This document shows positions 1,116-49,602 of a DNA stretch of 64,000 bases, piece after piece (the stretch's first letter is position 1; each line of letters opens with the position of its first letter). The notes beneath the pieces are model-generated. The model was not told where the DNA came from. It saw nothing but the letters and a program-made list of their open reading frames with translations, and made no database searches. Position numbers and translations under genes: made by a program. Source of the DNA: Alphaproteobacteria bacterium (lineage in GTDB: Bacteria; Pseudomonadota; Alphaproteobacteria; JAJTHO01; CANGYM01); assembly GCA_044375675.1 (NCBI GenBank), contig JBILMD010000001.1, forward strand, positions 126,396 through 190,395, written 5' to 3'.

Positions 1116-1631
1116 ATGAAAATAAAAGATCGCGTCGAGTTCAAAAGCAAGCCCCCTGTCCTGTCTTTTGCTGAAACGGACAAAGTGATTGATGCCGTTA
1201 GGGCGATGTCAGAAAAAAACTACGGCGCAAGTGTTGTTGTGGATTCTGACAACAGGCCTGTTGGGATTGTGACAGAACGGGATTTCATGCGGCGACTCTT
1301 GGCCAAAGGGTTGGATGCCAACACAACCCCCTTGAGTGACATTATGACACGCGATCTAAAACTCGCATCCACAGAGGATACCGTGGTTGACTGGTTGCGC
1401 ATCATGTCAAACGAGCGTTTTCGTCACCTGCCCGTGATTGATGAGCAAGGTAAACTGATCAACCTGATGTCACAGGGTGATTTTGTTTCCTACACTTGGC
1501 CCCAACTTCTTAACCGCGCCAAAGAAACCCTCACCAAATCCTTTATGGAGCGTTTTCATCTCCATTTGATTTTGGCAGGGGTTATGATTTACAGCATTCT
1601 GGTCCTGATGATTGTTATGAATGCACAGTAA
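1116..1631 (+). CDS. CBS-domain protein with C-terminal hydrophobic segment
   Basis: Tandem CBS-like segments (GIVTERDF..., HLPVIDEQGKLINLMSQGDF) and a hydrophobic C-terminus. Confidence 0.65.
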   Translation: MKIKDRVEFKSKPPVLSFAETDKVIDAVRAMSEKNYGASVVVDSDNRPVGIVTERDFMRRLLAKGLDANTTPLSDIMTRDLKLASTEDTVVDWLRIMSNERFRHLPVIDEQGKLINLMSQGDFVSYTWPQLLNRAKETLTKSFMERFHLHLILAGVMIYSILVLMIVMNAQ

Positions 1632-1731
1632 CAAGGGTTCTTTAAAAATAAAATTTTCCAGCGTGATGGCTCCCACGCATGGACAAAAGAAGCTTGCTAA
1701 GACCTCTCAATGACCTCTCCACAATCCTCTG

Positions 1732-2202
1732 CTATACAAACACCACCTTAACCACCTCATACCCCTTAACCCCACCAGGGGCGGGGACTTCGATGTAATC
1801 GCCCACGGCTTTGCCCATCAGGGCGCGGGCGAGGGGGGCGGTGCTGGACAGGCGGCCTTGGGAAAGGTCTGCCTCTTCCATGCCCACAATGTGATAGGTG
1901 GTTTCTTTGCCGTCATCATCCGCCACCGTCACTGTGGCACCAAAGGTTACGGTATCGCCCGAAAGTTTTTTGGGATCCACGATTTCCGCGCGGCTGATTT
2001 TGCCCTCTAGGTCCTTAATCCGCGCCTCAATAAACCCCTGACGTTCGCGGGCGGCGTGGTATTCGGCGTTTTCTTTCAAATCGCCGTGCTCTTTGGCCTC
2101 GGCAATGGCGGCGATGACGGCGGGGCGCTCTTCGGTTTTCAGGGTGCGCAGCTCCACCTGCAATTTTTCATAACCCGGCAGGGTCATGGGGTATTTTTCC
2201 AT
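1732..2202 (-). CDS. greA: Transcription elongation factor GreA
   Basis: [13 protein letters not shown]...[24 protein letters not shown]...[10 protein letters not shown] matches the GreA N-terminal coiled coil and C-terminal FKBP-like domain from memory. Confidence 0.95.
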
Positions 2203-2219: not shown

Positions 2220-3608
2220 TTAAAAATGAATAACACGACCCATGGCGTCCAGCGTGGCCTCGTGCATCATTTCCGATAACGTGGGGTGGGGGAATACGGT
2301 ATGCGCCAAATCCAGCTCTGTCAACTCCCCATTCATGGCAATGACAAAGCCCTGAATCAGCTCGGTGACTTCTGCCCCGATCAGGTGGGCCCCCAGCAAT
2401 TCACCCGTTTTGGCATCATAGATGGTTTTGATCAACCCTTCCGGCTCGCCCAGCGCAATGGCTTTGCCGTTGCCCATAAAGGGAAAACGGCCCACTTTCA
2501 ACGTATGGCCCGCCTCTTTGGCCTTGGCCTCGGACAGGCCCACACTGGCGACCTGCGGCATGGTATAGGTACATCCGGGAATTTTGGCGCGGTCCATGGG
2601 GTGAACATCGGGCTGGCCTGCCAGATTTTCCACACAAACCATGGCCTCGTGCGAAGCCTTGTGCGCCAACCACGGGCCCGCGGTGACATCCCCGATGGCG
2701 TAAACGCCGGCCTCGTCCGTTTTCAAATACCCGTCGGTGACGATGTGGCCCCGATCCAGACGAATTTTGGTTTTGTCCAAACCGATGGTTTCCGTGTTCG
2801 GCACAATGCCCACCGCCATAATGACGCGATCCACGGTCAGGGATTCTGTTTTTCCCGCTTTTTCAAAGGTCAGCGTGACATTATCCTTACCCTTATCCAA
2901 TTTGGTCAGCTTGGCGCCCACGTGGATGGTCATGCCCTGTTTTTCAAAGGTTTTTTTGGCCAGACCGGAAATCTCTGCATCCTCAGCCGGCAGGATACGG
3001 TCCATAGCCTCAATCACTGTAACCTTGGATCCCAAGGTGTTGTAAAAACTGGCAAACTCCATCCCAATGGCGCCGGATCCCACAATGGCGAGGGTTTTGG
3101 GCAGGGTGTCCTGAACCATGGCCTCGCGGTAGGTCAAAACCAATCGTCCATCCGGTTCAAACCCCGTCAACACGCGGGCCCGGGCGCCGGTGGCCAGAAT
3201 GATATGCTTCGCCGTGAGGGTTTGTTCTTTATCACCCTTCACCAAAACTTTTCCCCCGCCCAGCAGGGACCCATGGCCCGTGATGACCTCAACCTTATTT
3301 TTTTTCAGCAAATGGGCGATGCCGCCCGATAATTGTTTTGCCACGCCGCGGGATCGGGCCACGATGGCGGGCATATCAACCTTCACGTCGGCAACGCTCA
3401 GGCCGTAATCCTTGGCATGTTTGATGTGATGATACATTTCCGCGGAACGCAACAAAGCCTTCGTCGGGATGCACCCCCAGTTCAAACAAATGCCCCCCAG
3501 ATGGGTGGATTCCACCACCGCGGTTTTCAAACCCAGCTGATTGGCCCGAATGGCCGCCACATAGCCCCCCGGGCCACCCCCGATAACAATCACATCATAG
3601 TTACTCAT
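2220..3608 (-). CDS. lpdA: Dihydrolipoyl dehydrogenase (E3). True start taken at the internal Met that begins [16 protein letters not shown].
   Basis: FAD-binding GGGPGGY motif, redox-active [10 protein letters not shown] disulfide and HAHPT interface motif. ATG verified at 3608. Confidence 0.95.
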
Positions 3609-3682
3609 ACCATGCCTTTTCTTTTTGCGTGTTCGTGCCCCGTACCTTGCCACGGTTTTTCAGGGGAGGGAAGGGGGAACAA

Positions 3683-4036
3683 TCACTCTGATTTTCCTTG
3701 CAGCAAAACCTGTAGCTGTTCCAACAAAGCGGGGATGTGCAACAGAGCAACACTTAAAACAACCTCGTGGGCGATATCATCATAACCATGGGCCAGATGA
3801 TTCCTCATGCTGATGATTTTTTGCCAAGGAATTTGGGGATTTTGCTCTCTCAAGGGGGCACTGACGCGGGTGGCGGCTTCACCAAAAACATGAATTAAAC
3901 GTTGTAAAATCAATGCCGCATCAGAATCATCTTCAATACCATCCTTTCGGTAACGTTCCAATGTTTCCCCTATACGACGGCCAAAGCGGATCATATCATA
4001 CAGGGCGACGCGATCATCCCGCTGGCTTTCCCTCAT
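3683..4036 (-). CDS. hepT: HepT-like HEPN toxin (DUF86), pair 1
   Basis: R-x4-HxY HEPN motif (RNHLAHGY). Overlaps the upstream NTase gene by 4 nt. Confidence 0.8.
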   Translation of the reverse strand: MRESQRDDRVALYDMIRFGRRIGETLERYRKDGIEDDSDAALILQRLIHVFGEAATRVSAPLREQNPQIPWQKIISMRNHLAHGYDDIAHEVVLSVALLHIPALLEQLQVLLQGKSE

Positions 4037-4332
4037 AAAAACCGCACATCCTTCATAACATTTTCCTCTAAATAGGGGTTTTTGGCGATTTTTTGACGAA
4101 AAGAAAACCGCACAGGCAGGCCCGTCCGCAGGCTGAGGTCCTGCTCGGCATCCAAAAGATCAAAAAACGTAAACGGGGCGGTATAATCTATCAGGATATC
4201 CAAATCACTCCGCTCATCCGCATCGCCGCGGGCATAGCTGCCAAAGACGCCCATTTCTGTGATGGGGTATTTGGCCATCAAATCGCGTTTGGCGTCCTGC
4301 AAAATGGGCAAAAGGTCGTTGAGTGTTTTCAT
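4033..4332 (-). CDS. mntA: MntA-like minimal nucleotidyltransferase antitoxin, pair 1
   Basis: GS-x9-RG...D-x-D NTase fold motif (GVFGSYARGDADERSDLDIL). Confidence 0.8.
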   Translation of the reverse strand: MKTLNDLLPILQDAKRDLMAKYPITEMGVFGSYARGDADERSDLDILIDYTAPFTFFDLLDAEQDLSLRTGLPVRFSFRQKIAKNPYLEENVMKDVRFL

Positions 4333-4345
4333 GGGTATGCTGTTG

Positions 4346-4702
4346 TTACCAATTCAGGCCTTTGTCTTTCAAAAACATTTCTAATGCTGCAATCATGGGC
4401 GGCAGATGATCGATGACAATACGCCATACCAAAGGATTTTCAATTTCATCATAATCATGGGCAATCACGTTGCGGCATCCAATGATTTGAACCCACGGAA
4501 TATCCGGCAAGAGGGTTTTGGTTGGACCATCAACCTTTTTCGCCGCTTCACCAATAATTTGTACCGCGTGAAGCAAGGCAAATCGCCGAAGCTGATCTTC
4601 GAAATACGTGTCTTGTGTATACGGGGCAGCAAAACCCACCGCAGCGCGGGCATGATCCAACATATCCACCAGATATTGCGTGCTATCGTTCTGCCCCCTC
4701 AT
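4346..4702 (-). CDS. hepT: HepT-like HEPN toxin (DUF86), pair 2. Divergent from pair 1.
   Basis: RNVIAHDY HEPN motif. 4-nt overlap with the upstream NTase gene. Confidence 0.8.
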   Translation of the reverse strand: MRGQNDSTQYLVDMLDHARAAVGFAAPYTQDTYFEDQLRRFALLHAVQIIGEAAKKVDGPTKTLLPDIPWVQIIGCRNVIAHDYDEIENPLVWRIVIDHLPPMIAALEMFLKDKGLNW

Positions 4703-4998
4703 AAATAAACAGCCTCCTGCAAAATGCGGGGGGCCAGAAAGCGTTTTAGGCGGTTTTTGTTGACCAAATCCACGGTGGGAATGCCTGTTTTGTTCTGTAA
4801 ATACAGCTGAATATCCACGATATCAAACAGGGAAAAACCATGGGTATCCATCACATACAGAATATCCAAATCACTCCGCTCATCCGCATCACCGCGGGCG
4901 TAGCTGCCAAAGACGCCCATTTCTGTGATGGGGTATTTGGCCATCAAATCGCGTTTGGCGTCCTGCAAAATGGGCAAAAGGTCGTTGAGTGTTTTCAT
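4699..4998 (-). CDS. mntA: MntA-like nucleotidyltransferase antitoxin, pair 2. Start taken at the internal Met MKTLNDLL. The annotated N-terminal extension merely translates a repeat element.
   Basis: First 47 residues identical to pair-1 MntA, then divergent. NTase motif present. ATG verified at 4998. Confidence 0.75.
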   Translation of the reverse strand: MKTLNDLLPILQDAKRDLMAKYPITEMGVFGSYARGDADERSDLDILYVMDTHGFSLFDIVDIQLYLQNKTGIPTVDLVNKNRLKRFLAPRILQEAVYL

Positions 4999-5555
4999 GG
5001 GTATGCTGCTGACCAACCGTCCCCCAACTTTGCCACGGTTTGGGGGGGCAGGGAAGGGGATTTTTTCAACACAACCCTTTTTCGCCTCCACCCCAAAAAA
5101 ATTTCATAAAATTCTTGACGCATATATATATATATATTAAATTAAATGTTCACCCATAGCATTGCCACAATCCCGTGGATAAGATGCTTGGGCCTCACAA
5201 AGGTGAACCATGACCAACCGTCAACCGACGATGCCTGCCATAATCGCTCAGGCGATTTCCGGACAATTCGTTCGACTTCCCATCAAAATCAGAATTTTTC
5301 TGATTCTTGGCGGATCTGCAGCTTTGCTGCTTCCCCCAGCTTTGTATTTTAACAAAGCTATAATCCAATGGATGGCACCTATCGCCGAATCTCGACGTAT
5401 CTGCACCCAGAATGGGGGAAGAAACGCTATGGGACCAGATGAATTTCTCCATCCCCTATGGCTAAAATCTAGCGGATGGTGCAACTTCTCCAGCATCACT
5501 GGCCGCAATGCTGCGTGGGAATGGGATGTGAAAAACTGGAAGCCCTGAGACCACA

Positions 5556-5571
5556 CCCCCCCTCGGGGGGG
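5556..5571 (-). terminator. C7-TC-G7 perfect hairpin just downstream of the rpoB stop
   Basis: CCCCCCCTCGGGGGGG palindrome 30 nt past the rpoB stop. There is no clear U-run, so an intrinsic-terminator call is tentative. Confidence 0.3.
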
Positions 5572-5601
5572 TTACCCAGACCCCTACTCCTCGAGAGAAG
5601 A

Positions 5602-8600
5602 TTACTCTTCAAACGAGGGTAGGGGCTTTCTGGTTTCTTGGGCCTGCAGGTAATCGCTTTGTTTCAGCTCGATGTTCAATCCCAAGGCGCGGATTTCTTT
5701 GATCAATACGTTAAAGGACTCAGGGATACCGGTTTGGAACGTGGCATCGCCCTTGACGATGGATTCGTAAACCTTGGTCCGGCCGGCCACGTCGTCGGAT
5801 TTGATGGTCAGCATTTCCTGCAGAGTATAGGCGGCGCCGTAGGCTTGCAGGGCCCAGACCTCCATCTCCCCAAAACGCTGGCCCCCGAATTGGGCCTTTC
5901 CACCCAGCGGCTGCTGCGTCACCAAACTGTACGGCCCAATGGACCGCGCGTGAATTTTATCATCCACCAAATGGTGCAGTTTCAGCATGTACATATAGCC
6001 CACGGTTACGGGACGATCGAACCTTTCCCCCGTGCGGCCATCGTACAGCATCACCTGACCGGATCCATTCAGGCCCGCTTTTTCCAGCATCTCAACAATC
6101 TCGGCTTCTTTCGCGCCATCGAAAACCGGCGTGGCCATGGGCACACCCTTTTTCAGGTTGTGGCAGAGTTCCTTCAGGTCATCCCCATTCATGGCGTCGA
6201 TTTCGCCCTGCGTTTCGGTATCGGGGTACAGGGTTTTTAGGTGCGCTTTGACCTCTTTCTGCCCCTTGTCCTTATCCAGAGACGCAATCATCTGCGCCAC
6301 CTGACGGCCCAAACCGCCTGAGGCCCAGCTGAGGTGGGTTTCCAAAATCTGGCCCACGTTCATACGCGAGGGAACCCCCAGCGGGTTTAACACGATATCC
6401 ACCTGCGTGCCGTCCTCAAGAAACGGCATGTCCTCCAGCGGCATGATGCGGGACACAACCCCTTTGTTCCCGTGACGACCGGCCATTTTGTCCCCAGGTT
6501 GGATTTTGCGCTTCACGGCGACAAAGACCTTAATCATCTTCATCACGCCCGGTTGCAAATCATCCCCGCGCTGCAGTTTGTCGACCTTATCGTTAAATCT
6601 GGCGTTGATTTCGCGCAGGCTGGCTTCAAATTCCTGATTCAGGGTGGCGATGCGGTCCATGACCACGGCATCCTGAATCACAATTTTGGACCATTGGTTT
6701 TTGGGCATGGCATCCAGCGCGGCAGCATCCAAAGCCTGTCCGCGTTTGGCGCCTGTGGCTTTTTCCACAACCTGCCCCGCCAACCAAGAGGCCAGACGGT
6801 CATAATAGCTGGTTTCAATGATCCGGCGCTGCGTATCCCGCTCCCGCGCCAGGGCATCAATGCCGGCTTGCTCCAGCGCCACGGCCCGCTCGTCCTTGTC
6901 AATGCCGGTGCGGGAGAAAATCCGCACCTCAACCACCGTCCCCGTCACCCCGGGCGGCAGGCGCAGGGATGTGTCGCGCACATCGCTGGCTTTTTCCCCG
7001 AAAATGGATCGCAGCAGTTTTTCTTCGGGTGTGGATGGGGTTTCCGCCTTGGGCGTCACTTTTCCAACCAAGATATCCCCGGGCTTCACTTCCGCCCCGA
7101 CATACACAATACCGGCTTCATCCAGATTGCGCAGGGCCTCTTCGCCCACATCCGGAACATCGCGGGTGATGTCTTCCTGACCCAGCTTGGTATCGCGGGC
7201 CATGACCTCGAACTCTTCGATGTGAATGGATGTGAAAACATCATCGCGCACAATGCGCTCGGATAGCAGAATGGAATCCTCGAAGTTATACCCATTCCAC
7301 GGCATGAACGCACACAACACGTTGCGTCCCAAGGCCAATTCGCCCAAATCAGTGGACGGTCCATCGGCGATGATGTCACCTTTTTTGATGCCATCGCCCA
7401 CCTTCACCACCGGTTTCTGGTTGATGCAGGTGTCTTGGTTGGATCGCTGGAATTTCCGCAGGTTGTAGATGTCTACCCCAACGCCCGTGGCGCCGTCGTC
7501 TGTTTTCAAAACAATACGCTCTGCATCCACACGGTCCACGATCCCATCGCGGCGGGCCACAACAACCACACCGGAATCACGGGCCACAACGGCCTCCATG
7601 CCTGTCCCCACCAAGGGGGCCTCGGACCGCAGCAACGGCACGGCCTGACGCTGCATGTTGGATCCCATCAGGGCGCGGTTGGCATCGTCATTTTCCAAAA
7701 ACGGAATCAGCGACGCCGCCACAGACACCAGCTGCTTTGGTGAAACGTCAATGTAATCAATGTCTTCACGGCGGGCCAAAATGAACTCACCGGCTTTGCG
7801 GCAGGTGATCAGCTCGTCGGCAAAACCGCCCTGATCATTCAGGGCCGCGTTGGACTGGGCAATGGTGTAACGGCTTTCTTCCAGCGCCGACAGGTAATCC
7901 ACAACAAGGGATACCTTGCCGTCAATGACTTTGCGGTAAGGGCTTTCGATGAACCCATAGCGATTGATGCGCGAAAAGGTCGCCAAAGAGTTAATCAGAC
8001 CGATGTTCGGCCCCTCTGGCGTTTCAATGGGACAAATCCGGCCGTAATGGGTGGGGTGAACGTCCCGAACCTCGAACCACGCCCGCTCCCGCGTTAATCC
8101 ACCAGGGCCCAAGGCCGAAAGACGGCGTTTATGGGTAATTTCCGACAAAGGATTGGTCTGGTCCATAAACTGGGACAACTGCGAGGATCCAAAAAACTCC
8201 TTCACCGCCGCCACAACAGGCTTGGCATTCACCAGATCATGGGGCATGGCTGTTTCCAGCTCCACCGCGCCCATGCGCTCTTTAATGGCCCGCTCCATCC
8301 GCAGCAAACCCAAACGGTACTGATTTTCAATCAGCTCGCCCACCGAACGCACACGACGGTTGCCCAAATGGTCAATATCATCCACTTCGCCGCGGCCATC
8401 TTTCAGATTGATGATGGTGCGAACAATTTCAACAATATCCTCTTTCTCCAAAACCCGAACGGTGTCCGGCGCATTCAGACCCAAACGGGCATTCAGCTTC
8501 ACACGACCCACGGCGGAGAGATCATAGCGCTCTTCATCGAAAAACAGGCTGTTGAACAGGGCTTCTGCGGCCTCATATGTGGGGGGCTCGCCTGGGCGCA

Positions 8601-9792
8601 TGACGCGGTAAATGTCTGCCAACGCCTCTTCGCGGCAATAGTTTTTATCGGCCATCACCGTGTTCAAAATGTGGGGGCCATATTTAATATAGTCGATGTC
8701 CAGCAGGAAAAGGTCCTTGAGTCCTTTTTCGGCCACCAATTCCAACACAGAGGCATCCACCTCCTGACCCGCATCGGCCAGAACAATCCCCGTGTTTTCA
8801 TCAATGATATCCAGCGCCAGAAACCCACCGATCAATCCTTCTGGGCTGACGAAGATGGCGGAAAAGTTTTCCTTCTCCAGCTCTTTCATCAGGCGCGGCG
8901 TCATTTTGGTGCCGGCGGGCAGGCGAACTTCACCCGTTTTGGCGTCCACCAGATCATGAATCAACTTCACCCCGCGCCATTTTTCAGGCACGAAGGACGT
9001 CTGCCATCCGCCCTTGCAAACGGTGTAGTGCGTGTGGGTATAAAAGGTGTTAAGGATATCCAGCGCCGACAGTCCCTGCGCCTCGTAAGGCGCCAAAGGA
9101 CCCTGAGCCCGCTTTTTCGCCGTAGCTTCATTATCCAAACACATCAAAAACGTTGTCACCGGCAATTTACGGCGGCGATCAATACGCACATACAAAATGT
9201 CTTTGGCATCAAATTCAAAATCCAGCCACGACCCGCGGTAGGGGATCACACGGGCATTGTAAAGATATTTTCCCGACGCATGGGATTTCCCATTGTCATG
9301 ATCAAAAAACACACCAGGGGATCGGTGCATCTGCGACACAATCACCCGCTCGGTCCCGTTCACCACAAACGTCCCGTTTTCCGTCATCAGGGGAATGTCC
9401 CCGACGTAAACCTCTTGTTCCTTAATGTCGCGGATGGAGCGGACCCCTGTGTCCTCATCCAAATCCCACACCACCAGACGCAGAGTCAAACGCAGGGGGC
9501 ACGCAAAGGTAATCCCGCGCTGCTGACATTCCTCAACATCATATTTGGGCGCGTCAAAGTCATACGACACATATTCCAGCTGCGCCCGATTGGCATAATC
9601 CGCGATGGGAAAAATGGACTGAAACACCTCGTGCAGGCCGACCCGCAAACGCTCGGCGTGGGGAATATCCATCTGCAGAAAATGGGCACACGAATTCCGC
9701 TGCACCTCAATCAAGTTCGGCATGTCCACAACTTGGGGGATCTTTCCAAAACTCTTACGAAGACGTTTGCGCGAAGTGAACGAAGCAGCCAT
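5602..9792 (-). CDS. rpoB: DNA-directed RNA polymerase beta subunit
   Basis: 1396-aa product with N-terminus [19 protein letters not shown] and conserved RpoB blocks throughout. ATG at 9792 preferred over the GTG at 9804. Confidence 0.97.
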
Positions 9793-9962
9793 ACGGGTAA
9801 ACACTCTCTAAAAATCACAACAAAGAGGGAAGGGGGGACAGGCCCAAACAGATCCAAAAAAAGAAAAACGCATAGAACCCAAAGGGCACGCCTGTCAAAA
9901 CGATGATACGACACACGTTATGACACAGTCGCGCCCTTTGGGCAACACGTTTTAATGGCCGT

Positions 9963-10343
9963 CTACTTAATGTCGACTTTGGCGCCAGCGGCTTCGACTT
10001 TTTTCTTAATGTCTTCCGCTTCTTCTTTTTTCACGGCTTCCTTGATGGGCTTGGGGGCTGCTTCAACCAAGTCTTTGGCTTCTTTCAGACCCAGACCCGT
10101 GATGGCGCGAACTTCCTTGATCACGTTGATTTTGTTGTCACCGGCAGCGACCAAAATCACATCAAACTCTGTTTTTTCCTCAACGGCAGCAGCCTCGCCG
10201 CCACCAGCAGGGGCAGCCGCCACAGCCACAGGCGCGGCCGCAGACACACCCCATTCGTCTTCCAGTCTTTTGGCCAGCTCAGCAGCCTCCAGAACCGTCA
10301 AAGCGGAAAGATCTTTAATCAAAGCGTTCAATTTATCAGACAT
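9963..10343 (-). CDS. rplL: 50S ribosomal protein L7/L12
   Basis: [33 protein letters not shown]..., Ala-rich hinge, and a C-terminal domain ending [18 protein letters not shown]. Confidence 0.97.
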
Positions 10344-10376
10344 AAAAAACTCCTATAGATGGTCTGAGAGGGAAGG

Positions 10377-10886
10377 TTACTTTTTGCTGTAGGCTGACAA
10401 AAGCCGCGCCAGCTGCGCAGCCGGTGCCTGAACAACACCTGCAATTTTTGTGGCGGGGGCCTGAATCAGGCCGATCAACATACTCCGCAGAACATCCATG
10501 GACGGCAGCTTGGACAGGGTGCGCACATCCTCGGCGGACAACAAACGGCCATCCATAACAGCGCTGAGAACCTGAAGCTGGTCCGGAAATTTCTTTTCTT
10601 CATCCACCAGAACCTTGCACAGGCCAACGGGATCCTGACCCGTCACAACGGCGGTGCGGCCCACGAACGATGACGTTAAAACCTCGCACGCTGTTCCCTG
10701 AACGGCCAGACGATACAGGGTGTTTTTGGACACCTGCAGCGACCCACCAGCATCCCGCACGGCGCGACGCAGAGCCAAAGAATTGGCCACTTTATAATCG
10801 GTTTTTTTCACCACAATCACCATGGGGGCAGAAGACACAGCCTCTTTCACGGCGGCAATATAGGCAGGCTTTTCTGAACGTAACAT
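10377..10886 (-). CDS. rplJ: 50S ribosomal protein L10
   Basis: L10-like sequence beginning at the internal Met MLRSEKPAYIAAVKE (ATG verified at 10886). The upstream extension in the ORF track is probably untranslated leader. Confidence 0.9.
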   Translation of the reverse strand: MLRSEKPAYIAAVKEAVSSAPMVIVVKKTDYKVANSLALRRAVRDAGGSLQVSKNTLYRLAVQGTACEVLTSSFVGRTAVVTGQDPVGLCKVLVDEEKKFPDQLQVLSAVMDGRLLSAEDVRTLSKLPSMDVLRSMLIGLIQAPATKIAGVVQAPAAQLARLLSAYSKK

Positions 10887-11173
10887 AACTTTCCCCAAAC
10901 AAAACACGCACTTAAAAAAAGAAGCAGGGGAGGGGACAAAACCACAGCAAAGGCACCCAACAACGGGGCGCTTTTTAGGGGCTTTGATCAACATCTCGTG
11001 CGGGCTTTACGCTTTTAAACTTTTAAAAACACCAGCAGTCTGCAACGTTTTTTCAAAAACAGGAACGCTACATAGCACAGCGGGGCAGGGGAGCGCAAGG
11101 GGGTTTTTTACAATATTGAGAAAAAATGAGCGCTATCGTCCAGCAATGAAAAGGATGGGAAGTGTGATCATTT
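10887..11173 (-). promoter_or_regulatory. Candidate L10 autoregulatory leader / promoter region
   Basis: About 290 nt of untranslated sequence upstream of rplJ. A structured L10(L12)4-binding leader is expected here in bacteria generally. The structure itself was not verified. Confidence 0.3.
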
Positions 11174-12055
11174 TTAATTCAGGTTTGGGCTGCCTTTTTG
11201 GTCGCGAATATATTTGATGAATCCATATAAGTTTTCCGCATCTAGCCCATGCAACATTAAGCGAAACCCTGCTTCGAGCGTTGAAAATGGAACCATGGGG
11301 TGCTTGTTGTTCACGAGACCCATGATGAATTGCTTGTCCAACATCTTGGCGATATAGACAGCCATGGTTTCGTCCAACTGCAGAGAGTTGCTGGCACGTT
11401 CAAAGGCTTCGTTCGAAAGAAACACACCAAACAAGGGCGTATAAATTTCGATTGCGCTCTGTAGATCAAGAAAATTGTGCCATGTATCAGACAACGAGTC
11501 TATTTCCGAATCGAAATCATAAATCGCTGAAAAATCAATTTTATCAAGGGGAATAGGCTGGATAGATTTATTGTTCTTTTGCAAATAAGCACTGAGTTCT
11601 ATGATAAAATTATAAATGTTCAAATCGTGCTGAACAAACATGTTGTTTTTAAAGTCATCTATAATTCTCGGTTTTAAGGGATGGGATGTTAGCTGTCCCT
11701 CTGCAAGGTTATCATTCAAGAATCTAAGAATTTGGCTGCCTATATGAAAGTGGCGCATGATAAGATAATTTGCATCCTTGTTCACGAAATTTTTCATGCC
11801 CCATGCGATCAGGCAGTGTAATGTTTTGGGCGATGTTAATGCGTTGGGAATTAAAATACGCACTAGCCTGACTAAGGCGATAGACAAGCGTGCAAGTGGC
11901 CGAATGATCGGCAGAAGAAACGTGCGCGATCTTGTGCCGTTATTACGGAGCAGGGCTTCTTTTGCCGGTTGATCGAAAAAGGTGCTCTGATCCAAGGCCA
12001 AAGCCAACCAAGGATCGGGGTTGTTCAGGTCGTGAAGCTTGGCATCAAAAGACAT
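11174..12055 (-). CDS. Hypothetical protein of 293 aa, third gene of the KAS-III/HO-fold operon
   Basis: Long ORF, AT-richer than flanks. Its start overlaps the stop of the upstream gene (ATGA). No recognisable motif. Confidence 0.5.
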   Translation of the reverse strand: MSFDAKLHDLNNPDPWLALALDQSTFFDQPAKEALLRNNGTRSRTFLLPIIRPLARLSIALVRLVRILIPNALTSPKTLHCLIAWGMKNFVNKDANYLIMRHFHIGSQILRFLNDNLAEGQLTSHPLKPRIIDDFKNNMFVQHDLNIYNFIIELSAYLQKNNKSIQPIPLDKIDFSAIYDFDSEIDSLSDTWHNFLDLQSAIEIYTPLFGVFLSNEAFERASNSLQLDETMAVYIAKMLDKQFIMGLVNNKHPMVPFSTLEAGFRLMLHGLDAENLYGFIKYIRDQKGSPNLN

Positions 12056-12720
12056 TACGTGTTTCCCAACTCTTCCATTTGCAGCCTATACAGTCGAGCC
12101 GTGACTTTGGCGGTCTTGATAATATTTTTCCCCATATTCGGTATATCAAGAATACCTGATTGCAGCGTTTTGCTGAACTCTTCCATGTGCTCATCATCAT
12201 GCGCGGAATGATACGTAAGAAAAGCCACCTGTTTATCTTCAAGATTCAATTGCTCCTGAATACTTTTTCCCCACTGACCGGCTTTCTTCTGGCCCAGCCC
12301 TTCAATAATGAACATAGCACCTAACAGGCGAAAAGGATTTGGCTGGCTTGCATGCTGGTACATATAGGCATGTAGCGCCTCCGAACCTATGTTTTTTTCT
12401 GCGCCGCGAATTTCTTCAAGCGTGCCACCTAAAGAAATATAACTTTCTTCAAGCATGCGGTAATCTTTGTGTTCTGTAATCGCATGCTTTAAAAAAACCG
12501 AGCGTTGTTCGAGATATTCTTCATCAATACTGGAAGCGGCGCGAGCAATCCACCGCGAACCTTCTACAACCTGCTGACGGTGGTTGACCAGAAGCATTTT
12601 ATAATCCTCAAGCTGGAATTTCTTGCGGTTAATTTTATCAATCAAAGGGACCGTATCAAGGATTGTATCAAAATCAGTCCAGACCTTGAGCAGCCCGCGC
12701 ATTACTTCTTCACTTTTCAT
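12055..12720 (-). CDS. Heme-oxygenase-fold (TenA/PqqC/CADD-like) putative iron-containing redox enzyme
   Basis: About 220 aa with spaced E/H-rich helices (FLKHAITEHKDY, IIEGLGQKK, FLTYHSAHDDEHMEE), reminiscent of HO-like diiron enzymes and TenA. Family assignment is tentative. Confidence 0.5.
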   Translation of the reverse strand: MKSEEVMRGLLKVWTDFDTILDTVPLIDKINRKKFQLEDYKMLLVNHRQQVVEGSRWIARAASSIDEEYLEQRSVFLKHAITEHKDYRMLEESYISLGGTLEEIRGAEKNIGSEALHAYMYQHASQPNPFRLLGAMFIIEGLGQKKAGQWGKSIQEQLNLEDKQVAFLTYHSAHDDEHMEEFSKTLQSGILDIPNMGKNIIKTAKVTARLYRLQMEELGNT

Positions 12721-12734
12721 TACCTCACCTTTCG

Positions 12735-13859
12735 TTATACGACCTCTAGTAACATCAATCCGTTCAATCCTCGCCCGCTTTCTGGTACATGACAGAGAAT
12801 TTTCTCGCCTGATTTCAGCTTCCCGCTATAAAATAGCTCCTCAAGCATTATTAAGATAGAGGCCGTTCCTGTATTGCCCTTACTGTACAGGTTGCTGAAC
12901 CATTTTTCTTCATCTATCATTGCGCCGGCCTTTTTAAGCAACGCAATTGTTTCTTCACGCAGCGAGTGCGAGGAATAATGGCAGCATAAATGATCAATTT
13001 GGTCGAGCACAATTTTCTTTTGATCTATCAGATCTAAGTAATGAGAAATCCAGACAGGGATCATTCTTTTTAACAAATGAAAATCCTGCGCTAGGACAAA
13101 GGCACCTTCGGAAAAAGCCGCTGCGGGGCTGAGAAAACTGCTCCAAGGTTCAATCCTATCGTCAGTGCGGACACCGCCTGCTAGCATGCAGGTATCAAAT
13201 CTGTCGGCGTAAGAGCGTATGTCAATCCAGCATATTTTTAGAGATATATGGCGCGTGTTTGCCTTGCTGCCAAGCATCGCGGCCCCTGCACCATCAGACA
13301 AGGTAAACCGAAGAAAGTCTACTTCGTAAGGTAAATATCCAAGCTCTTTCACTTGTGCGGTATCTTCATAGAACCCCGGTCTGAAGTAGCGACTGGCGAA
13401 TTCGCTACCTGATACGGCGGCACAATCATGCTCGTTCGCTTTAATCTGTGTGTATACTGATTTTACAGCCATGAGAACACTGGCGCATACGCTTTGGAAG
13501 CTGGCGATTTCAATTGGGGGAAGCTTCAGATTCGCATGAACATGGGATGCCAAACCCGGCACCAGAACATCACCCAATGTTGCCGATGTGGCCAGATAAG
13601 TAATGTCATTTAGGTTAGCCTCTGATTTCCTCAGGGCTTCCTGTATGGCGATAGCAGCCATATCCGCGCTGCCGTATTGCTGAACTCCATTATCATCCAG
13701 CGCATAATAACGTGTTTTTATTTTATTTTGGCGCAAGGCGGTGCTACGGAAACGCGATGGCTTGCCGTGAATGCATCCCAGATAATTTTCCATTTGGCTA
13801 TTTGGTATGGGCTGGCCGGGCAGAAAAATGCCAAGACTGTTAATGAATACATCCCTCAT
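12735..13859 (-). CDS. 3-oxoacyl-ACP synthase III (FabH/KAS III)-like condensing enzyme
   Basis: FabH-like N-terminus, active-site Cys in SVCASVLMAV, His in HYSSHS, and Asn in GNTGTASI. Confidence 0.75.
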   Translation of the reverse strand: MRDVFINSLGIFLPGQPIPNSQMENYLGCIHGKPSRFRSTALRQNKIKTRYYALDDNGVQQYGSADMAAIAIQEALRKSEANLNDITYLATSATLGDVLVPGLASHVHANLKLPPIEIASFQSVCASVLMAVKSVYTQIKANEHDCAAVSGSEFASRYFRPGFYEDTAQVKELGYLPYEVDFLRFTLSDGAGAAMLGSKANTRHISLKICWIDIRSYADRFDTCMLAGGVRTDDRIEPWSSFLSPAAAFSEGAFVLAQDFHLLKRMIPVWISHYLDLIDQKKIVLDQIDHLCCHYSSHSLREETIALLKKAGAMIDEEKWFSNLYSKGNTGTASILIMLEELFYSGKLKSGEKILCHVPESGRGLNGLMLLEVV

Positions 13860-14010
13860 GAAAGCTCTTTTCGATTTTTTCGATTTTCAGAGAATCCGGC
13901 GATCAAATGTTACAAGCCTACTCAATTCTCAACTCTTTTTGAAGTGATTCCGTAAAGGTTAGAAACGTGGTTCCATAGAGGGGCTTGAAACTCTGTCGAA
14001 GGAGGCCTCT

Positions 14011-14637
14011 ATGGAACTGGAAAATCGTATCATCGCCATTTATCTGCGCATAGAAGAAATTTACAAAGACCTCACGGCCTTGCGCCCCAAACGCAAACGC
14101 GTCTTTAAAAAACACGCCAAACCCTGGCTGTACGGCATGAAACCCGCCGCCCCAGGCCACCTGATCCAAATCGACCATATGACTGTCAGAAAAAATGTCA
14201 TAACAATCAAACACTTCCAAATGTACGACCACGTCACCAAAACCATCCTCGCCGAGGTGTATAGCAACGCCACCAGCCGATCCGCAAAAAAATTTCTGCG
14301 TAAAATCAAAGAGGAACTCCCGTTTGCCATCGTGTCCATCCAGGTCGACGGCGGGTCCGAATTCATGGCCGAGTTCGAAGAAGACTGCCATGCCCTCGGC
14401 ATCGCTCTGTTCGTCCTGCCCCCCAAAAAACCCTAGTATAACGGGGGTGTCGAGCGCGGAAATCGCATCTTTAAAGAAGAATTCTACGCCAAAGCCGCCT
14501 ATGATTCCCTCGGACACTGCCGCGCCCTCCTCAAAACCGCCGTCCACAAATACAACACTTACCGCCCACATTATGCCTTGAAAGGATCCACACCCTCCGC
14601 GTATACAAAAACCATCCTCCTCAAGGACGCCGCTTGA
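14011..14637 (+). pseudogene. DDE (rve-type) transposase remnant: N-terminally truncated, with an in-frame amber stop at 14434-14436
   Basis: ...GHLIQIDHMTV...IQVDGGSEFMAEFEE...PKKP*YNGGVERGNRIFKEEFY...YRPHYAL. DDE integrase-core motifs split by TAG in the same frame. A GGAGG RBS lies upstream of the ATG at 14011. Confidence 0.7.
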
Positions 14638-14702
14638 TCACCATATCTGTCTCAAATGGGGTGAACTCATACACAAAAAAATCCTAGCATCCCCCCCAAA
14701 AT

Positions 14703-14751
14703 CTGTTACCTGTTACCTGTAATCTGTTACCTGTTACCTGTTACCTGTATG
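14703..14751 (+). repeat. Heptanucleotide tandem array (CTGTTAC)x7, two units degenerate. The last unit contains the argB ATG.
   Basis: ctgttac ctgttac ctgtaat ctgttac ctgttac ctgttac ctgtATG read directly from the sequence. Confidence 0.9.
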
Positions 14752-15666
14752 AAAGAAACCCACCCCCTGCGCGATGTGAACCCTGTGGCGGCCGCCAAGG
14801 CCAGCACGCTGTCCGATGCTTTGCCCTATATGCGCCAGTATGCGGGGCGCACCGTGGTCATTAAATTTGGCGGCCATGCCATGGGGGAGGAAAGCCTGAC
14901 CGAGGCCTTTGCCCGTGACATTGTCCTGATGAAACAGGTGGGCATGAACCCCGTGGTGGTCCACGGCGGCGGTCCCCAGATTGGCGCTATGTTAGAGCGT
15001 TTGAAAATCAAAAGTGAATACATTGACGGCCTGCGTGTCACCGATGCCGCCACGGTGGAGATCGTGGAAATGGTGCTGTGCGGATCCATCAACAAAAGCA
15101 TCGTCAGCGCCATCAACAGGGCAGGGGGCCACGCCGTGGGCCTGTCCGGCAAGGACGGCCAGTTGATTGAGGCCCGCAAGCTGCGCCATCGCCCCACACA
15201 AAAAACGGATTCCAACATTGAACGCCTGCTGGACTTGGGCTTTGTGGGGGAACCGACCTTTGTCAACCCCCACGTTCTGGACGTTCTGGCTGAATCCGAC
15301 ATCATTCCCGTCATTGCGCCCATTGGGATGGACCCAAACGGCCAGACCTATAACATCAACGCCGACACCGCCGCCGGTGCCATTGCTGAGGCCATGGAGG
15401 CCACGCGCCTGCTGCTGCTGACCGATGTGGTGGGGGTTTTGGACAAAGACAAAACCTTGCTGCCCAAAATCACCCTGAGCCAAGCCCAAAAAATGATCGA
15501 AAACGGCACCATCACCGGCGGCATGATTCCCAAAATCCAAACCTGCCTGCACACCATATCCCGCGGTGTCGGCGCGGCCGTCATCCTAGATGGCCGCATT
15601 CCCCACGCCCTGCTGCTGGAAACCTTCACCTCAGAAGGGGCTGGGACGATTATTATGGAGGGGTAG
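14749..15666 (+). CDS. argB: Acetylglutamate kinase
   Basis: [25 protein letters not shown]...[10 protein letters not shown]... matches the ArgB amino-acid-kinase fold from memory. Confidence 0.95.
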
Positions 15667-18297: not shown

Positions 18298-18404
18298 ACA
18301 TAAAACCACTTTTTCCTAAAAAAATGCAACCTACCATACCCCATGATTTATTATATAAAAAATTTCTGTTACACTGGCGCAAACATCACAGGCCAAGCCA
18401 CCCC

Positions 18405-18851
18405 ATGGATCAAAAACCCCGCTGGATCTATCGTTTTGACAATTACAAACGCGCTTTTGGCTTGCTGAGAGAGGCCATTGAAACCATGGACACACGGGAT
18501 TTGACCCAACTGGAAAAAGAGGGGGTCATCCAACGCTTTGAATACACATGGGAATTGGCGTGGAAAGTCCTGAAAGATTATCTGGAATACGAAGGGGTTT
18601 CCCTGGATAAAATCACCCCCGCATCCGTCATTCGCGCTGCCTTTGAGGCAAAAATCATCGCGCATGGGGAACACTGGATGCAGGCACTGGATGCCCGAAA
18701 CAAAATGTCCCATGTTTATGATATGAAAACATTTGACGATACGATTCGTGATATTCAAAAAACCTATTTAGCCCTGCTTGATGATTTGCATGTATCGATG
18801 TTGGACAATGCCCTCAAAAACCACCATGGTTTTGGGTCTGGCGATGCGTGA
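18405..18851 (+). CDS. HI0074-like nucleotidyltransferase substrate-binding HEPN protein
   Basis: Family signature RFEYTWELAWKVLKDYLEYEGV. ATG at 18405 preferred over 18324. Confidence 0.7.
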   Translation: MDQKPRWIYRFDNYKRAFGLLREAIETMDTRDLTQLEKEGVIQRFEYTWELAWKVLKDYLEYEGVSLDKITPASVIRAAFEAKIIAHGEHWMQALDARNKMSHVYDMKTFDDTIRDIQKTYLALLDDLHVSMLDNALKNHHGFGSGDA

Positions 18852-21910: not shown

Positions 21911-21944
21911 GGTGGTGCGTGGTGCGTGGTGCGTGGTGAGTCAT
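21891..21944 (-). promoter_or_regulatory. 17-codon His-codon-rich uORF (MTHHAPRTTHHHVLRHN) overlapping the hisH start out of frame, built partly from a (CACCACG)3 heptamer array
   Basis: Minus-sense read: ATG ACT CAC CAC GCA CCA CGC ACC ACG CAC CAC CAT GTC CTG CGC CAT AAT TGA. The hisH ATG lies inside it in the +1 frame. Confidence 0.4.
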
Positions 21945-27657: not shown

Positions 27658-27727
27658 TTTTTTTTCCCAAAACACAAAAAAATGTGACAAATGGCACGGC
27701 ACGGCACGGCACGGCATAATGGGAGGG
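27658..27727 (+). promoter_or_regulatory. Repeat cassette copy 1: T-run + CCCAAAACACAAAAAAATGTGACAAATG + (GGCAC)4 + GGCATAATGGG
   Basis: Read directly. Contains a TGTGAC -35-like or CRP-half-site-like element and a CATAAT -10-like element separated by the pentamer microsatellite. Confidence 0.5.
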
Positions 27728-30995: not shown

Positions 30996-31073
30996 TTTTT
31001 TTTCCAAAAACACAAAAAAATGTGACAAATGGCACGGCACGGCACGGCACGGCACGGCACGGCATAATGGGGG
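30996..31073 (+). promoter_or_regulatory. Repeat cassette copy 2 with (GGCAC)6
   Basis: Same cassette as copy 1. The pentamer occupies 31031-31060. Confidence 0.5.
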
Positions 31074-31996: not shown

Positions 31997-32078
31997 TTTT
32001 TTTCCCAAAACACAAAAAAATGTGACAAATGGCACGGCACGGCACGGCACGGCACGGCACGGCACGGCATAATGGGGG
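31997..32078 (+). promoter_or_regulatory. Repeat cassette copy 3 with (GGCAC)7
   Basis: Same cassette. The pentamer occupies 32031-32065. Lies in the divergent region between the vapD-partner gene and a small plus-strand ORF. Confidence 0.5.
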
Positions 32079-32537: not shown

Positions 32538-32572
32538 CCTGTCACCTGTCACCCGTCACCTGTCACCTGTCC
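32538..32572 (+). repeat. Heptanucleotide array (CCTGTCA/CTGTCAC)x5, imperfect, abutting the rplY stop
   Basis: cctgtca cctgtca cccgtca cctgtca cctgtcc. One base different from the argB array unit CTGTTAC. Confidence 0.85.
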
Positions 32573-32576
32573 CCCC

Positions 32577-33176
32577 TCACTCCCCCGCTTCTTCCGCAGT
32601 GCCGCTCTTCGGTGCGACGATGGTGGCCAAGGTAAAGTCACGGTCAGTGATGGTCAACGTCACGCCCTCTGGCAGGGTCAGGATGCTGGATTTGATGGCA
32701 TCCCCGATTTTGGCATTCAGCAGATCAATTTCAAAGTGCGATGGGATTTTGCTGGCGTAACACAGAACCTCCACCGTGTGGCGCACGACGTTCAGGACAC
32801 CGCCGGCCTTTAGCCCGCGGCATTTGTCGGTGTTGGTTAAATGCAGGGGCACGGAAACCTTGATTTTGGTTTTGTCCGTCACGCGCATGAAATCCACGTG
32901 GATGGGTTGGTCTGTGACGCGGTTAAACTGAACGGCCTTGGGCAGGGCGCGGATGGGGCGGCCCTGATCGGGGGTCAATTCATACACAGTGGCGTAAAAG
33001 GATTCGTTGTGCAATCCGGCCATCAAATCCCGAATATCCAAAGAAAAGGTGACATTGTCATCCCCACCCCCATAAACAACACCCGGAACGCGGCCGGTGG
33101 TGCGCAAACGGTACATGGCATTTTTGCCCGTTTCGGTGCGGGTGGTGACGGGAATGGTGCGGGCGGTGGAACTCAT
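32577..33176 (-). CDS. rplY: 50S ribosomal protein L25 / general stress protein Ctc
   Basis: L25/Ctc N-domain ([11 protein letters not shown]...LHLTN) with a long C-terminal Ctc-type extension. Confidence 0.9.
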
Positions 33177-48051: not shown

Positions 48052-49602
48052 TTGTTTAAGCACGAGATCCACCCCATGGTCCCAGCCAACCCCGCGCACC
48101 AAGACGAATCCATCGCCATGGGCGATTGGCGGCGTTTGTTTTTGGCCTTCAGCCCCACGGGCGAACCCTATACCACCAAAGGGGATATTCTCAGCATCCT
48201 GTCCAAAAACGGCATTCATAAAAAAGATAACCGTATTCAGGATTTGATTGAGGCCCTAGAGGCCTACACCACAAAAGAGCCCATAGATTTTGAAACCTTC
48301 CGATCCTTGGCCGGACGTCATGTCTATTTGCTGCAACGCGCGGCGCAGGGCGGCTTTATTATCCCTGATTTTTCAGGATTTACGGATCATATTGCCCAGA
48401 TTTATCAGGATCTTTTGTCCATCAACACTGGCGATGTGGCCCGTTATATCCCCCAACTGGCCAGAGTGGACCCCAAATATCTGGGCATCAGCGTTTGCAC
48501 AGTGGATGGACAAACGTTTGATATTGGGGATACGGATGTGGGTTTTTGTGTGCAATCCACCTGCAAACCCGTGACCTATTGCATTGCGCTGGAGGACGTT
48601 GGCGAAGACACAGTCCACGCCCACGTGGGCCGCGAACCCAGCGGGCAAAATTTTAACGCCATTACACTCAACAGCAAAAACCTGCCCCATAACCCCATGA
48701 TCAACGCGGGATCCATGGTGTGTGCATCCCTGATTCGCCCCCAACAACCGCTGGCGGATCGTTTTGATGCCATTTTATCCGTCTGGCAAAGGTTGTGCGG
48801 CGGCGTGCGCCCGGGATTCAACAGCTCGGTGTATCATTCTGAAAAGGAAACAGCCGACCGCAACTTTGCACTGGCGTATTTTTTAAAGGAAGTGGGGGCC
48901 TTCCCCAGCGGCACAGATATTCATCAAACCTTGGATCTGTATTTTCAGTGTTGCTCTATTGAGGTCACAACCAAAGCCATGGCCACCCTGGCCGCAACCT
49001 TTGCCGGCGCAGGTGTGTGCCCCATGACGGGGGAGCGCGTGCTGTCCCCAGCATCCGTAAAACATGGCTTATCCCTGATGTTATCCTGCGGCATGTATAA
49101 TTTTTCGGGGGAATTTGCCTTTACTGTGGGCTTGCCAGCAAAATCGGGGATTTCCGGCGTGATTATGCTGGTGGTGCCGGGGGTAATGGGCATCACCATT
49201 TGGTCCCCCCGTCTGGACCCTTTGGGCAACAGCGTGCGGGGGGTGGCATTTTGCGAAAAGCTGGTGTCGCTTTACAATTTCCATAATTTTGACGGGGTGG
49301 GGCCCGCGTCCGAAAAAACGGATCCCCGTCTGCACGCCCATCAGGAAAAACAATACTTGGCCCTTTCCCTGATTCTGGCCAGCAGCCAAGGGGATCTGGA
49401 CGAGGTCAAACGCCTGATGGCCCGCGGGGCATCCCCCAATGTTCCCGATTATGATGGACGCACGGCCCTGCATTTGGCCGCGGCAGAGGGACGGCAAGAG
49501 GTCGCCCGTTATCTGTGCCGTCTGGGGGCCAGTTTGGATGTGCGGGATCGTTTTGGGCGCACCCCGCGCGAAGAAGCCGCTGCTTCGGGAATCACCCTGT
49601 GA
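48052..49602 (+). CDS. glsA: Eukaryote-type (kidney-type) glutaminase: EF-hand-like N-domain, glutaminase domain, C-terminal ankyrin repeats
   Basis: [13 protein letters not shown]...[25 protein letters not shown]...[15 protein letters not shown] parallels my memory of human GLS (FVIPDFMSFTSHI...[25 protein letters not shown]). C-terminal ANK repeats ([13 protein letters not shown]...). Confidence 0.85.
   Translation: [516 protein letters not shown]

Follow-up and report, generated by a model that had tools for sequence, protein, structure and literature searches.

In an uncultured lineage of freshwater alphaproteobacteria, rpoB is not followed by rpoC, and we could confirm that this split of a near-universal gene pair is a real rearrangement, rare and shared by a whole lineage. 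The adjacency of rpoB and rpoC is among the most conserved features of bacterial gene order; the common explanation is that the two largest subunits of RNA polymerase need to be expressed together and assembled co-translationally. In Helicobacter and Wolbachia, the two genes are fused. Considering the evidence jointly, we hold it to be likely that the arrangement is real and fixed, that rplJ-rplL-rpoB stands alone with rpoC located elsewhere, that genes were wedged between rpoB and rpoC before the two were split, and that the old junction is still a hotspot of replacement. No new molecular mechanism is demonstrated.

According to a 2025 preprint, rplKAJL-rpoBC is ‘universally conserved’, the only deviations listed there being separations of rplKA from rplJL and the cyanobacterial split of rpoC1 and rpoC2 (10.1101/2025.04.14.645983). 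The former, known from Bradyrhizobium and Actinomyces (10.1101/2025.04.14.645983), is a precedent for the break between rplA and rplJ seen here, as is one of the sister lineages described below (L091); the latter is found in cyanobacteria and plastids. The known variants of the locus all keep rpoB beside rpoC (or rpoC1), whereas here the adjacency itself is gone. Our search of the literature turned up no description of a bacterium with rpoB and rpoC unlinked, which is no proof of absence. A widespread lineage in which the two genes are unlinked provides a natural experiment on the explanation by co-expression and assembly, and its relatives offer graded intermediates with 0, 1, 3 and 6 genes between rpoB and rpoC. 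For marker-gene and synteny tools, an rpoC missing after rpoB is not to be read as mis-assembly in this clade.

Genomic setting and host lineage

The window, by which we mean the whole stretch of DNA analyzed, comprises 64,000 nt of assembly GCA_044375675.1 (contig JBILMD010000001.1, positions 126,396-190,395, forward strand), assigned to Alphaproteobacteria bacterium (JAJTHO01; CANGYM01). The remaining large open reading frames (ORFs) scanned across it encode mostly ordinary alphaproteobacterial housekeeping functions (his, folD, prs, dxr, bamA and others). No tRNA genes were found in the 64 kb, and Rfam gave no match above its gathering thresholds anywhere in the window, nor any at E≤1 within the interval 3500-11300.

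The host belongs to a long-branch lineage that is common in metagenomes. Among the matches listed for GTDB representatives, the top RpoB identity was just 63-68%. A collection of 5.8 billion protein clusters contained a species cluster (97%), a relative (88%) and further matches that were all at or below 73% identity; one member carries the NCBI label ‘Alphaproteobacteria bacterium’. The relative, L087, is a separate species (DNA ~75% identical) represented by a 405-kb scaffold. Sister lineages (L091, L092, L099, L100, L101 and the P0003 strain) have RpoB proteins about 70-75% identical to that of the host. In a neighbor-joining tree, the host lineage forms a long branch beside a small clade of L091, L092 and P0006, a placement that is loose. 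L101 is labeled Bdellovibrionales, NCBI’s order for Micavibrio, and the wider group is possibly Micavibrio-like. A C-terminal extension of RpoB, absent from typical alphaproteobacteria, is common to the host, the clade of L091, L092 and P0006, and L099, L100 and L101. This tail (window 5602-5670) runs ~15-25 residues past the usual alphaproteobacterial end (…NQRSY), and L087, L091, L092, L099, L100 and L101 all have such a tail with an LP motif.

A self-contained rplJ-rplL-rpoB unit

The window holds a single copy of rpoB, which is intact (Table 1). Its ORF spans 5602-9804 on the minus strand, with the ATG at 9792 as the likely start and a TAA stop at 5602-5604. Compared with its L087 orthologue (88% identical), rpoB has a pN of 0.08 and a saturated pS, and the gene is under strong purifying selection. 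The two ribosomal protein genes are equally well defined: rplJ is called at the identical 169 aa on L001-L006, and the exact RplL protein is present on 156 contigs. Among conspecific contigs (~98% identity), the strain-conserved core extends from 11113 to about 5550, and its boundary at 11113 recurs in every strain comparison. We conclude that rplJ-rplL-rpoB is a self-contained 5.5-kb unit with its own upstream region, located between argB and lpdA-greA. A simple sigma-70 scan called no promoter at the putative rplJ promoter (11060-11113).

In order and strand, rplJ, rplL and rpoB are arranged as in the classical beta operon rplKAJL-rpoBC of Escherichia coli and most bacteria, and the domain set of RpoB is the usual one. 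The classical operon has a known attenuator between rplL and rpoB; likewise, the spacer here contains a strong hairpin followed by a U-tract, with a minimum free energy of -58.9 kcal/mol (z = -5.4; none of 200 shuffles folded as well). In contrast to the classical operon, both rplK-rplA upstream and rpoC downstream are missing at this locus, and rpoB has a hairpin of its own at its end, with the next gene convergent to it. An earlier, sequence-only reading of this DNA had proposed that the conserved block is reduced to rplJ-rplL-rpoB; gene order and Pfam assignments bear this out.

Table 1. Coordinates of the rplJ-rplL-rpoB unit and its flanks in the window.
Feature	Position	Strand	Description
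greA	1732-2202	minus	transcript cleavage factor; Pfam GreA_GreB_N, GreA_GreB
lpdA-like dihydrolipoyl dehydrogenase	2220-3608	minus	462 aa as called on other contigs; Pfam Pyr_redox_2, Pyr_redox_dim
39-nt repeat D5, copy B	3638-3676	none	just upstream of lpdA
HepT2	3683-4036	minus	Pfam HepT-like
MNT2	4033-4332	minus	Pfam match; first 47 residues identical to those of MNT1
HepT1	4346-4702	minus	HEPN ribonuclease, predicted toxin; Pfam HepT-like, E 4e-19; R-x4-H motif RNVIAH
MNT1	4699-4998	minus	nucleotidyltransferase, predicted antitoxin; 99 aa, ATG at 4998; Pfam NTP_transf_2, Polbeta
39-nt repeat D5, copy A	5021-5059	none	79% identity to copy B
Sigma-70-like promoter TTGACG-N17-TAAATT	5115-5143	plus	predicted by promoter scan; aims into the variable ORF
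Replacement cassette	5193-5555	none	alignment gaps versus L001/L002, L003/L004, L005, L106
Strain-specific orphan ORF	5210-5548	plus	112 aa; two Cys and an N-terminal hydrophobic stretch; convergent with rpoB
rpoB 3' flank	5530-5601	minus	18-nt near-duplicate 5584-5601, hairpin 5556-5571, U5 run ~5530-5535
rpoB	5602-9792	minus	RNA polymerase beta; 1396 aa, intact, six Rpb2 Pfam domains over full length
Attenuator-like long hairpin and U-tract	9856-9953	minus	rplL-rpoB spacer; inverted repeat I8
rplL	9963-10343	minus	ribosomal protein L7/L12; Pfam Ribosomal_L12, L12_N
rplJ	10377-10886	minus	ribosomal protein L10; 169 aa from ATG at 10886; Pfam Ribosomal_L10
Core start, putative alpha-type rplJ promoter CTTGCG-N17-CTATGT	11060-11113	minus	inferred, read by eye
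Strain-specific island	11114-14672	none	GC 42-46%, reversed skew
DUF6999 gene	11174-12055	minus	
Haem_oxygenas_2-like gene	12055-12720	minus	
DarB/StlD-type ketosynthase	12735-13859	minus	
IS481-family transposase, partial match	14011-14436	plus	E 3e-15, well below family cut-off
Amino-acid kinase, argB-like	14749-15666	plus	Pfam AA_kinase

The break is reproducible and inherited

Past the rpoB stop, the window continues with a hairpin, an orphan ORF on the opposite strand, two MNT/HepT pairs, lpdA and greA. The earlier statement that rpoB ends at 5602 with no rpoC after it is correct: tblastn with RpoC proteins against the whole 64-kb window gave no match at E≤1e-5 and, at E≤1, two short chance-level matches only (inside rpoB and at 30.8 kb), and there is no ORF of rpoC size anywhere in the window. 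Nor did any of the ORFs tested throughout the window encode an L11 or L1 domain protein. In the comparator set, 80 loci at which GTDB species representatives encode RpoB relatives, rpoC directly follows rpoB in 79. The remaining locus, L078, is a Thioploca MAG (DAOUSL010000063.1) in which a membrane-protein ORF (272 aa) on the opposite strand comes after rpoB, with ORFs of 380 and 204 aa beyond it (L078 14101-17090).

The sequence-only reading had left the choice between a rearranged genome and an assembly chimera, in which the contig would be mis-joined after rpoB and/or before rplJ and the true genome would carry rplKAJL-rpoBC. Many conspecific contigs do stop 50-800 bp upstream of rplJ (L001-L004), where assemblers struggle, but at least three alternative strain-specific islands meet at the same boundary and account for these ends. 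The junction itself is spanned in six contigs from six samples and three sources, in two more JGI contigs and in the 405-kb scaffold of another species (~75% DNA identity). The six contigs all have rpoB, a small ORF, toxin-antitoxin (TA) genes, lpdA and greA, and no rpoC. Identical RpoB occurs on at least 16 contigs (ENA, JGI, Logan), and L006 is 100% identical to the window across 9 kb. A metagenome scan with a lineage-specific RpoB peptide recovered three contigs, every one of this species. The transition from rpoB to lpdA is reproduced in L001-L006 and L106 as well as in the related-species loci L087-L089. We accordingly assign a chimera practically no probability.

The order in L087 is argB, rplJ, rplL, rpoB, small ORF, lpdA and greA, so that both breaks are present. 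Because the host species and this 88% relative have both in common, the breaks are inherited and older than the species. The proposal of a rearranged genome is thus upheld by independent assemblies and by inheritance in L087, and in the comparison of synteny that the earlier reading had called for, L087 has both breaks, and the sister lineages keep rpoB and rpoC linked.

Search for rpoC

As the beta-prime subunit is essential, we infer that rpoC lies elsewhere in the genome, under a promoter of its own. The host gene was not found among the best 120 matches of each of two profile searches with sister-lineage RpoC. Five isolated or likely RpoC candidates (P0139, P0171, P0137, P0138 and P0311) were rejected, their context being that of other lineages with rpoB upstream. 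No RpoC peptide was specific enough to the host lineage for a pattern scan, and extending the window rightward yielded just short contigs.

The window might instead contain an additional, duplicated rplJ-rplL-rpoB, with a canonical rplKAJL-rpoBC and a second rpoB elsewhere in the genome; duplicate rpoB genes do exist in a few actinomycetes. Against this, the 5.8 billion protein clusters contain no second close RpoB cluster, the next matches being at most 73% identical and from other lineages, and the rpoB of the window is full-length and strongly constrained. We consider an extra copy highly improbable.

A possible trace of rpoC was found in the relative. The site in L087 that is orthologous to window 5210-5548 contains a 115-aa ORF (L087 14247-14594, minus), on the opposite strand to rpoB. 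Its product is collinear with RpoC residues 6-127 (BLASTP, 27% identity, E = 5e-6 in a single comparison) and reached the top score against 2000 shuffles with an RpoC N-terminal HMM. The hhalign p value was 0.0013, close to that of the best among 200 shuffles, and the zinc-binding cysteines of RpoC are not present. The window’s own ORF in this slot has no RpoC similarity of that kind. These alignments are suggestive only, and the L087 ORF may be an inverted remnant of the 5' end of rpoC.

The former junction is a replacement hotspot

According to the earlier reading, the 500 bp past rpoB hold only an AT run, a hairpin and a TA operon. The hairpin lies exactly where it had been placed (5556-5571), and the TA genes are confirmed as two MNT/HepT pairs; the claim that there is nothing else does not hold, given that the region also contains a strain-specific ORF and a conserved promoter. 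The AT run itself needs correction: it is (AT)8 at 5122-5137, not (AT)9 at 5121-5138.

The C7-TC-G7 hairpin sits within a longer stem; every conspecific locus keeps it, whereas L087 does not. The overall fold has a z of only -1.05 and is not statistically unusual. The 3' flank of rpoB is the probable terminator of the rplJL-rpoB unit. After its own stop, the rpoB of the window is followed by an 18-nt near-copy (5584-5601) of the alternative rpoB 3' end of other strains (…TTCGAGGAGTAG), which looks like the scar of a cassette exchange that reached the last rpoB codons.

Beyond the hairpin, ~360 bp of the window are replaced by unrelated DNA of ~420-460 bp in conspecific strains, while the flanks remain 94-99% identical. 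At least five alleles of this cassette were seen. Each of them, as well as the orthologous site in L087, contains an equally oriented ORF of 112-141 aa, and the ORFs of the alleles have in common just a hydrophobic N-terminus and two cysteines. The orphan ORF of the window has no Pfam, NCBIfam or PADLOC match and, searched against 1.84 billion representative proteins, retrieved only itself. The predicted promoter that points into the slot, the spacer of which is formed by the (AT)8 run, is retained by every conspecific locus and by L087, despite intergenic DNA around it that does not align. Its descent from the ancestral rpoC promoter was considered and rejected, as no like motif is found upstream of rpoC in the sister loci.

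Tests for an integron were negative: the neighboring genes contain no integrase domain, there is no Rfam match, and the cassette alleles have no flanking repeats in common beyond the conserved promoter and hairpin. Replacement-type flexible genomic islands of free-living bacteria consist of alternative cassettes at one locus between conserved flanks. The slot resembles them in its sharp boundaries in conserved DNA and its unrelated alleles at one locus; unlike them, it is very small, with one orphan ORF of ~110-140 aa, and is always under one conserved promoter. The old junction is a fast-changing slot, and in strains that are ~98% identical the two ends of rplJ-rplL-rpoB are hotspots of replacement.

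A variable MNT/HepT array next to lpdA

The two genes of each MNT/HepT pair overlap by 4 bp, and all four genes score above the Pfam cut-off. The MNT motif GS..RG..D.D and GSYARGDADERSDLD can be read directly in the sequence, the HepT pair carries the R-x4-H motifs RNVIAH and RNHLAH, and the MNT proteins match the PADLOC candidate family PDC-S09. Type VII systems of the MNT/HepT kind consist of adjacent, overlapping NTP_transf_2 and HepT-like pairs with GS..D.D and R-x4-H motifs, all of which are found here; in such systems the MNT partner neutralizes the toxin by AMPylation, an activity that is predicted here.

Two direct repeats mark the array. One, of 154 nt, is shared by the two MNT genes (4192-4345 and 4858-5011, 97% identical). 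The other is the 39-nt motif, the two copies of which bracket the array; L087 has a single copy directly upstream of lpdA, and we conclude that the motif is native lpdA upstream sequence. Deletions in L001 and L005 end at 3678. HepT2 is deleted in L001 and L002, L005 has lost most of the array, and all of it is absent in L087. Units of the array are gained, lost and recombined. Given this absence from the 88% relative, the array may postdate the split of rpoB and rpoC instead of being a leftover of the old spacer. The window’s MNT genes were also rejected as orthologues of the MNT gene in the L099 spacer, with which they share 28-44% identity over short stretches only. In its strain-dependent content, the array behaves like other MNT/HepT modules and defence islets; it differs from the usual islets in its position at the former rpoB-rpoC junction, beside a promoter-driven cassette and with no integrase or transposase nearby.

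The first conserved gene past rpoB is lpdA, which is the same neighbor in L001-L004 and L087. Between greA and the CBS-domain gene (window 1631-1734), L003 (9525-10463) and L004 (9572-10510) carry an extra Methyltransf_21 gene. A further TA component, with an NTase_sub_bind domain, lies beside ychF (window 18324-18851, plus) and has a counterpart in L087 (2024-2762, 74% identical); nucleotidyltransferase-type TA modules are numerous in the host lineage.

Alternative islands upstream of rplJ

As the earlier reading had noted, rplJ is preceded not by rplK-rplA but by a low-GC block, which encodes the DUF6999, Haem_oxygenas_2-like and ketosynthase proteins. The full set of island genes is present in the window and L006; L005 has an AbiJ-like gene, L001 and L002 have other AT-rich DNA, and L087 has nothing at this position. 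At least three alternative islands thus occur upstream of rplJ among ~98%-identical strains. In L087, argB lies 300 bp from rplJ, which identifies it as the ancestral upstream neighbor of the block. The low-GC trio (11174-13859, minus) resembles a small secondary-metabolite module, with a ketosynthase of the dialkylresorcinol type.

Insertion sequences are a common cause of inversions, and an IS-mediated rearrangement that moved rpoC, with the IS481-like fragment at 14.0 kb as its trace, had been suggested. The remnant exists, as a partial match to an IS481-family transposase; its causal role does not follow. The fragment is 8.4 kb from the 3' junction of rpoB, in an island that is missing from L087, L005 and L001/L002, all of which have both breaks, and no transposase, integrase or terminal inverted repeat was found at either edge of the core. 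Since there are genomes with both breaks that lack island and fragment, these are not the cause, and the island arrived after the rearrangement. We regard an IS-mediated origin of the split as improbable.

Sister lineages suggest how the pair came apart

The sister lineages retain rpoC downstream of rpoB, at various distances. In L100 the two genes are directly adjacent, and in L091 they are 61 bp apart. L101 has a 65-aa ORF between them. L092 has the full nusG-rplKAJL-rpoB, a 126-aa gene and rpoC-rpsL-rpsG-fusA-tuf. In L099, rpoB is followed by a 136-aa gene, a 158-aa ORF, an MNT gene and then rpoC, with TTGACA-N17-TAATGA ahead of rpoC. The largest spacer belongs to the P0003 strain and comprises a 142-aa ORF, two pairs of MNT and NTase_sub_bind genes and a 77-aa ORF before rpoC. 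This strain is in the same 90% cluster as L091, so that at least one spacer insertion varies among members of a single species-level cluster. The spacer between rpoB and rpoC is unusually permissive in these lineages and repeatedly accepts genes, including TA modules. The spacer genes of L092 (14237-14617) and L099 (1903-2313), which are 71% identical, encode a clan-AA aspartic protease (TIGR03698), and the 142-aa ORF of the P0003 strain is probably a clan-AA protease gene too.

The sister spacers with 1-6 extra genes probably reflect an erosion of the linkage before the split. The most likely order of events is that wedging came first and separation second, which is a reading of present-day states across lineages rather than of a reconstructed phylogeny. 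Selfish or small genes would have wedged into the spacer between rpoB and rpoC; they would have uncoupled the transcription of rpoC from that of rpoB; and a later rearrangement that moved rpoC away could then have been tolerated.

A single translocation would dispense with the wedge. In that scenario, the 5.5-kb rplJ-rplL-rpoB block was cut out of its place between rplA and rpoC and re-entered the chromosome between argB and lpdA, which left rplKA by rpoC and created both junctions in one event. The two species with the break have both junctions alike, the core has a sharp boundary at either end, and rplJ has its own upstream region; separations of rplKA from rplJL are also known, both from the literature (10.1101/2025.04.14.645983) and from L091. 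However, no repeats flank the block, and in L091 rplKA are gone from rplJ while rpoBC is intact, which argues that the two breaks need not have been simultaneous. We judge a block translocation to be a serious but on the whole unlikely alternative to the stepwise history.

The stepwise history can be extended into a broader and distinctly speculative proposal, which as a whole we think doubtful. The spacer of this clade would be an insertion sink for TA and other small genes, the ensuing stepwise uncoupling would have led to a genus-wide separation of rpoB and rpoC, and the junction would now serve as an exchange slot in which one conserved promoter expresses interchangeable orphan proteins, with the L087 ORF perhaps a relic of rpoC.

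Additional observations

Perfect or near-perfect tandem repeats with units of 5 and 7 nt occur at several sites of the window (14703-14748, 21912-21938, 27693-27716, 31031-31064, 32031-32069 and 32538-32580); they comprise (CTGTTAC)6.6, (GTGGTGC)3.9, three (GGCAC)n arrays and (CCTGTCA)4.9. L087 has a long (CTGTTTC)n array containing an assembly gap just upstream of lpdA (L087 14990-15200). On the plus strand of the window, positions 48052-49602 encode a glutaminase with C-terminal ankyrin repeats and an N-terminal EF-hand-like domain, which resembles the kidney-type glutaminases of eukaryotes.
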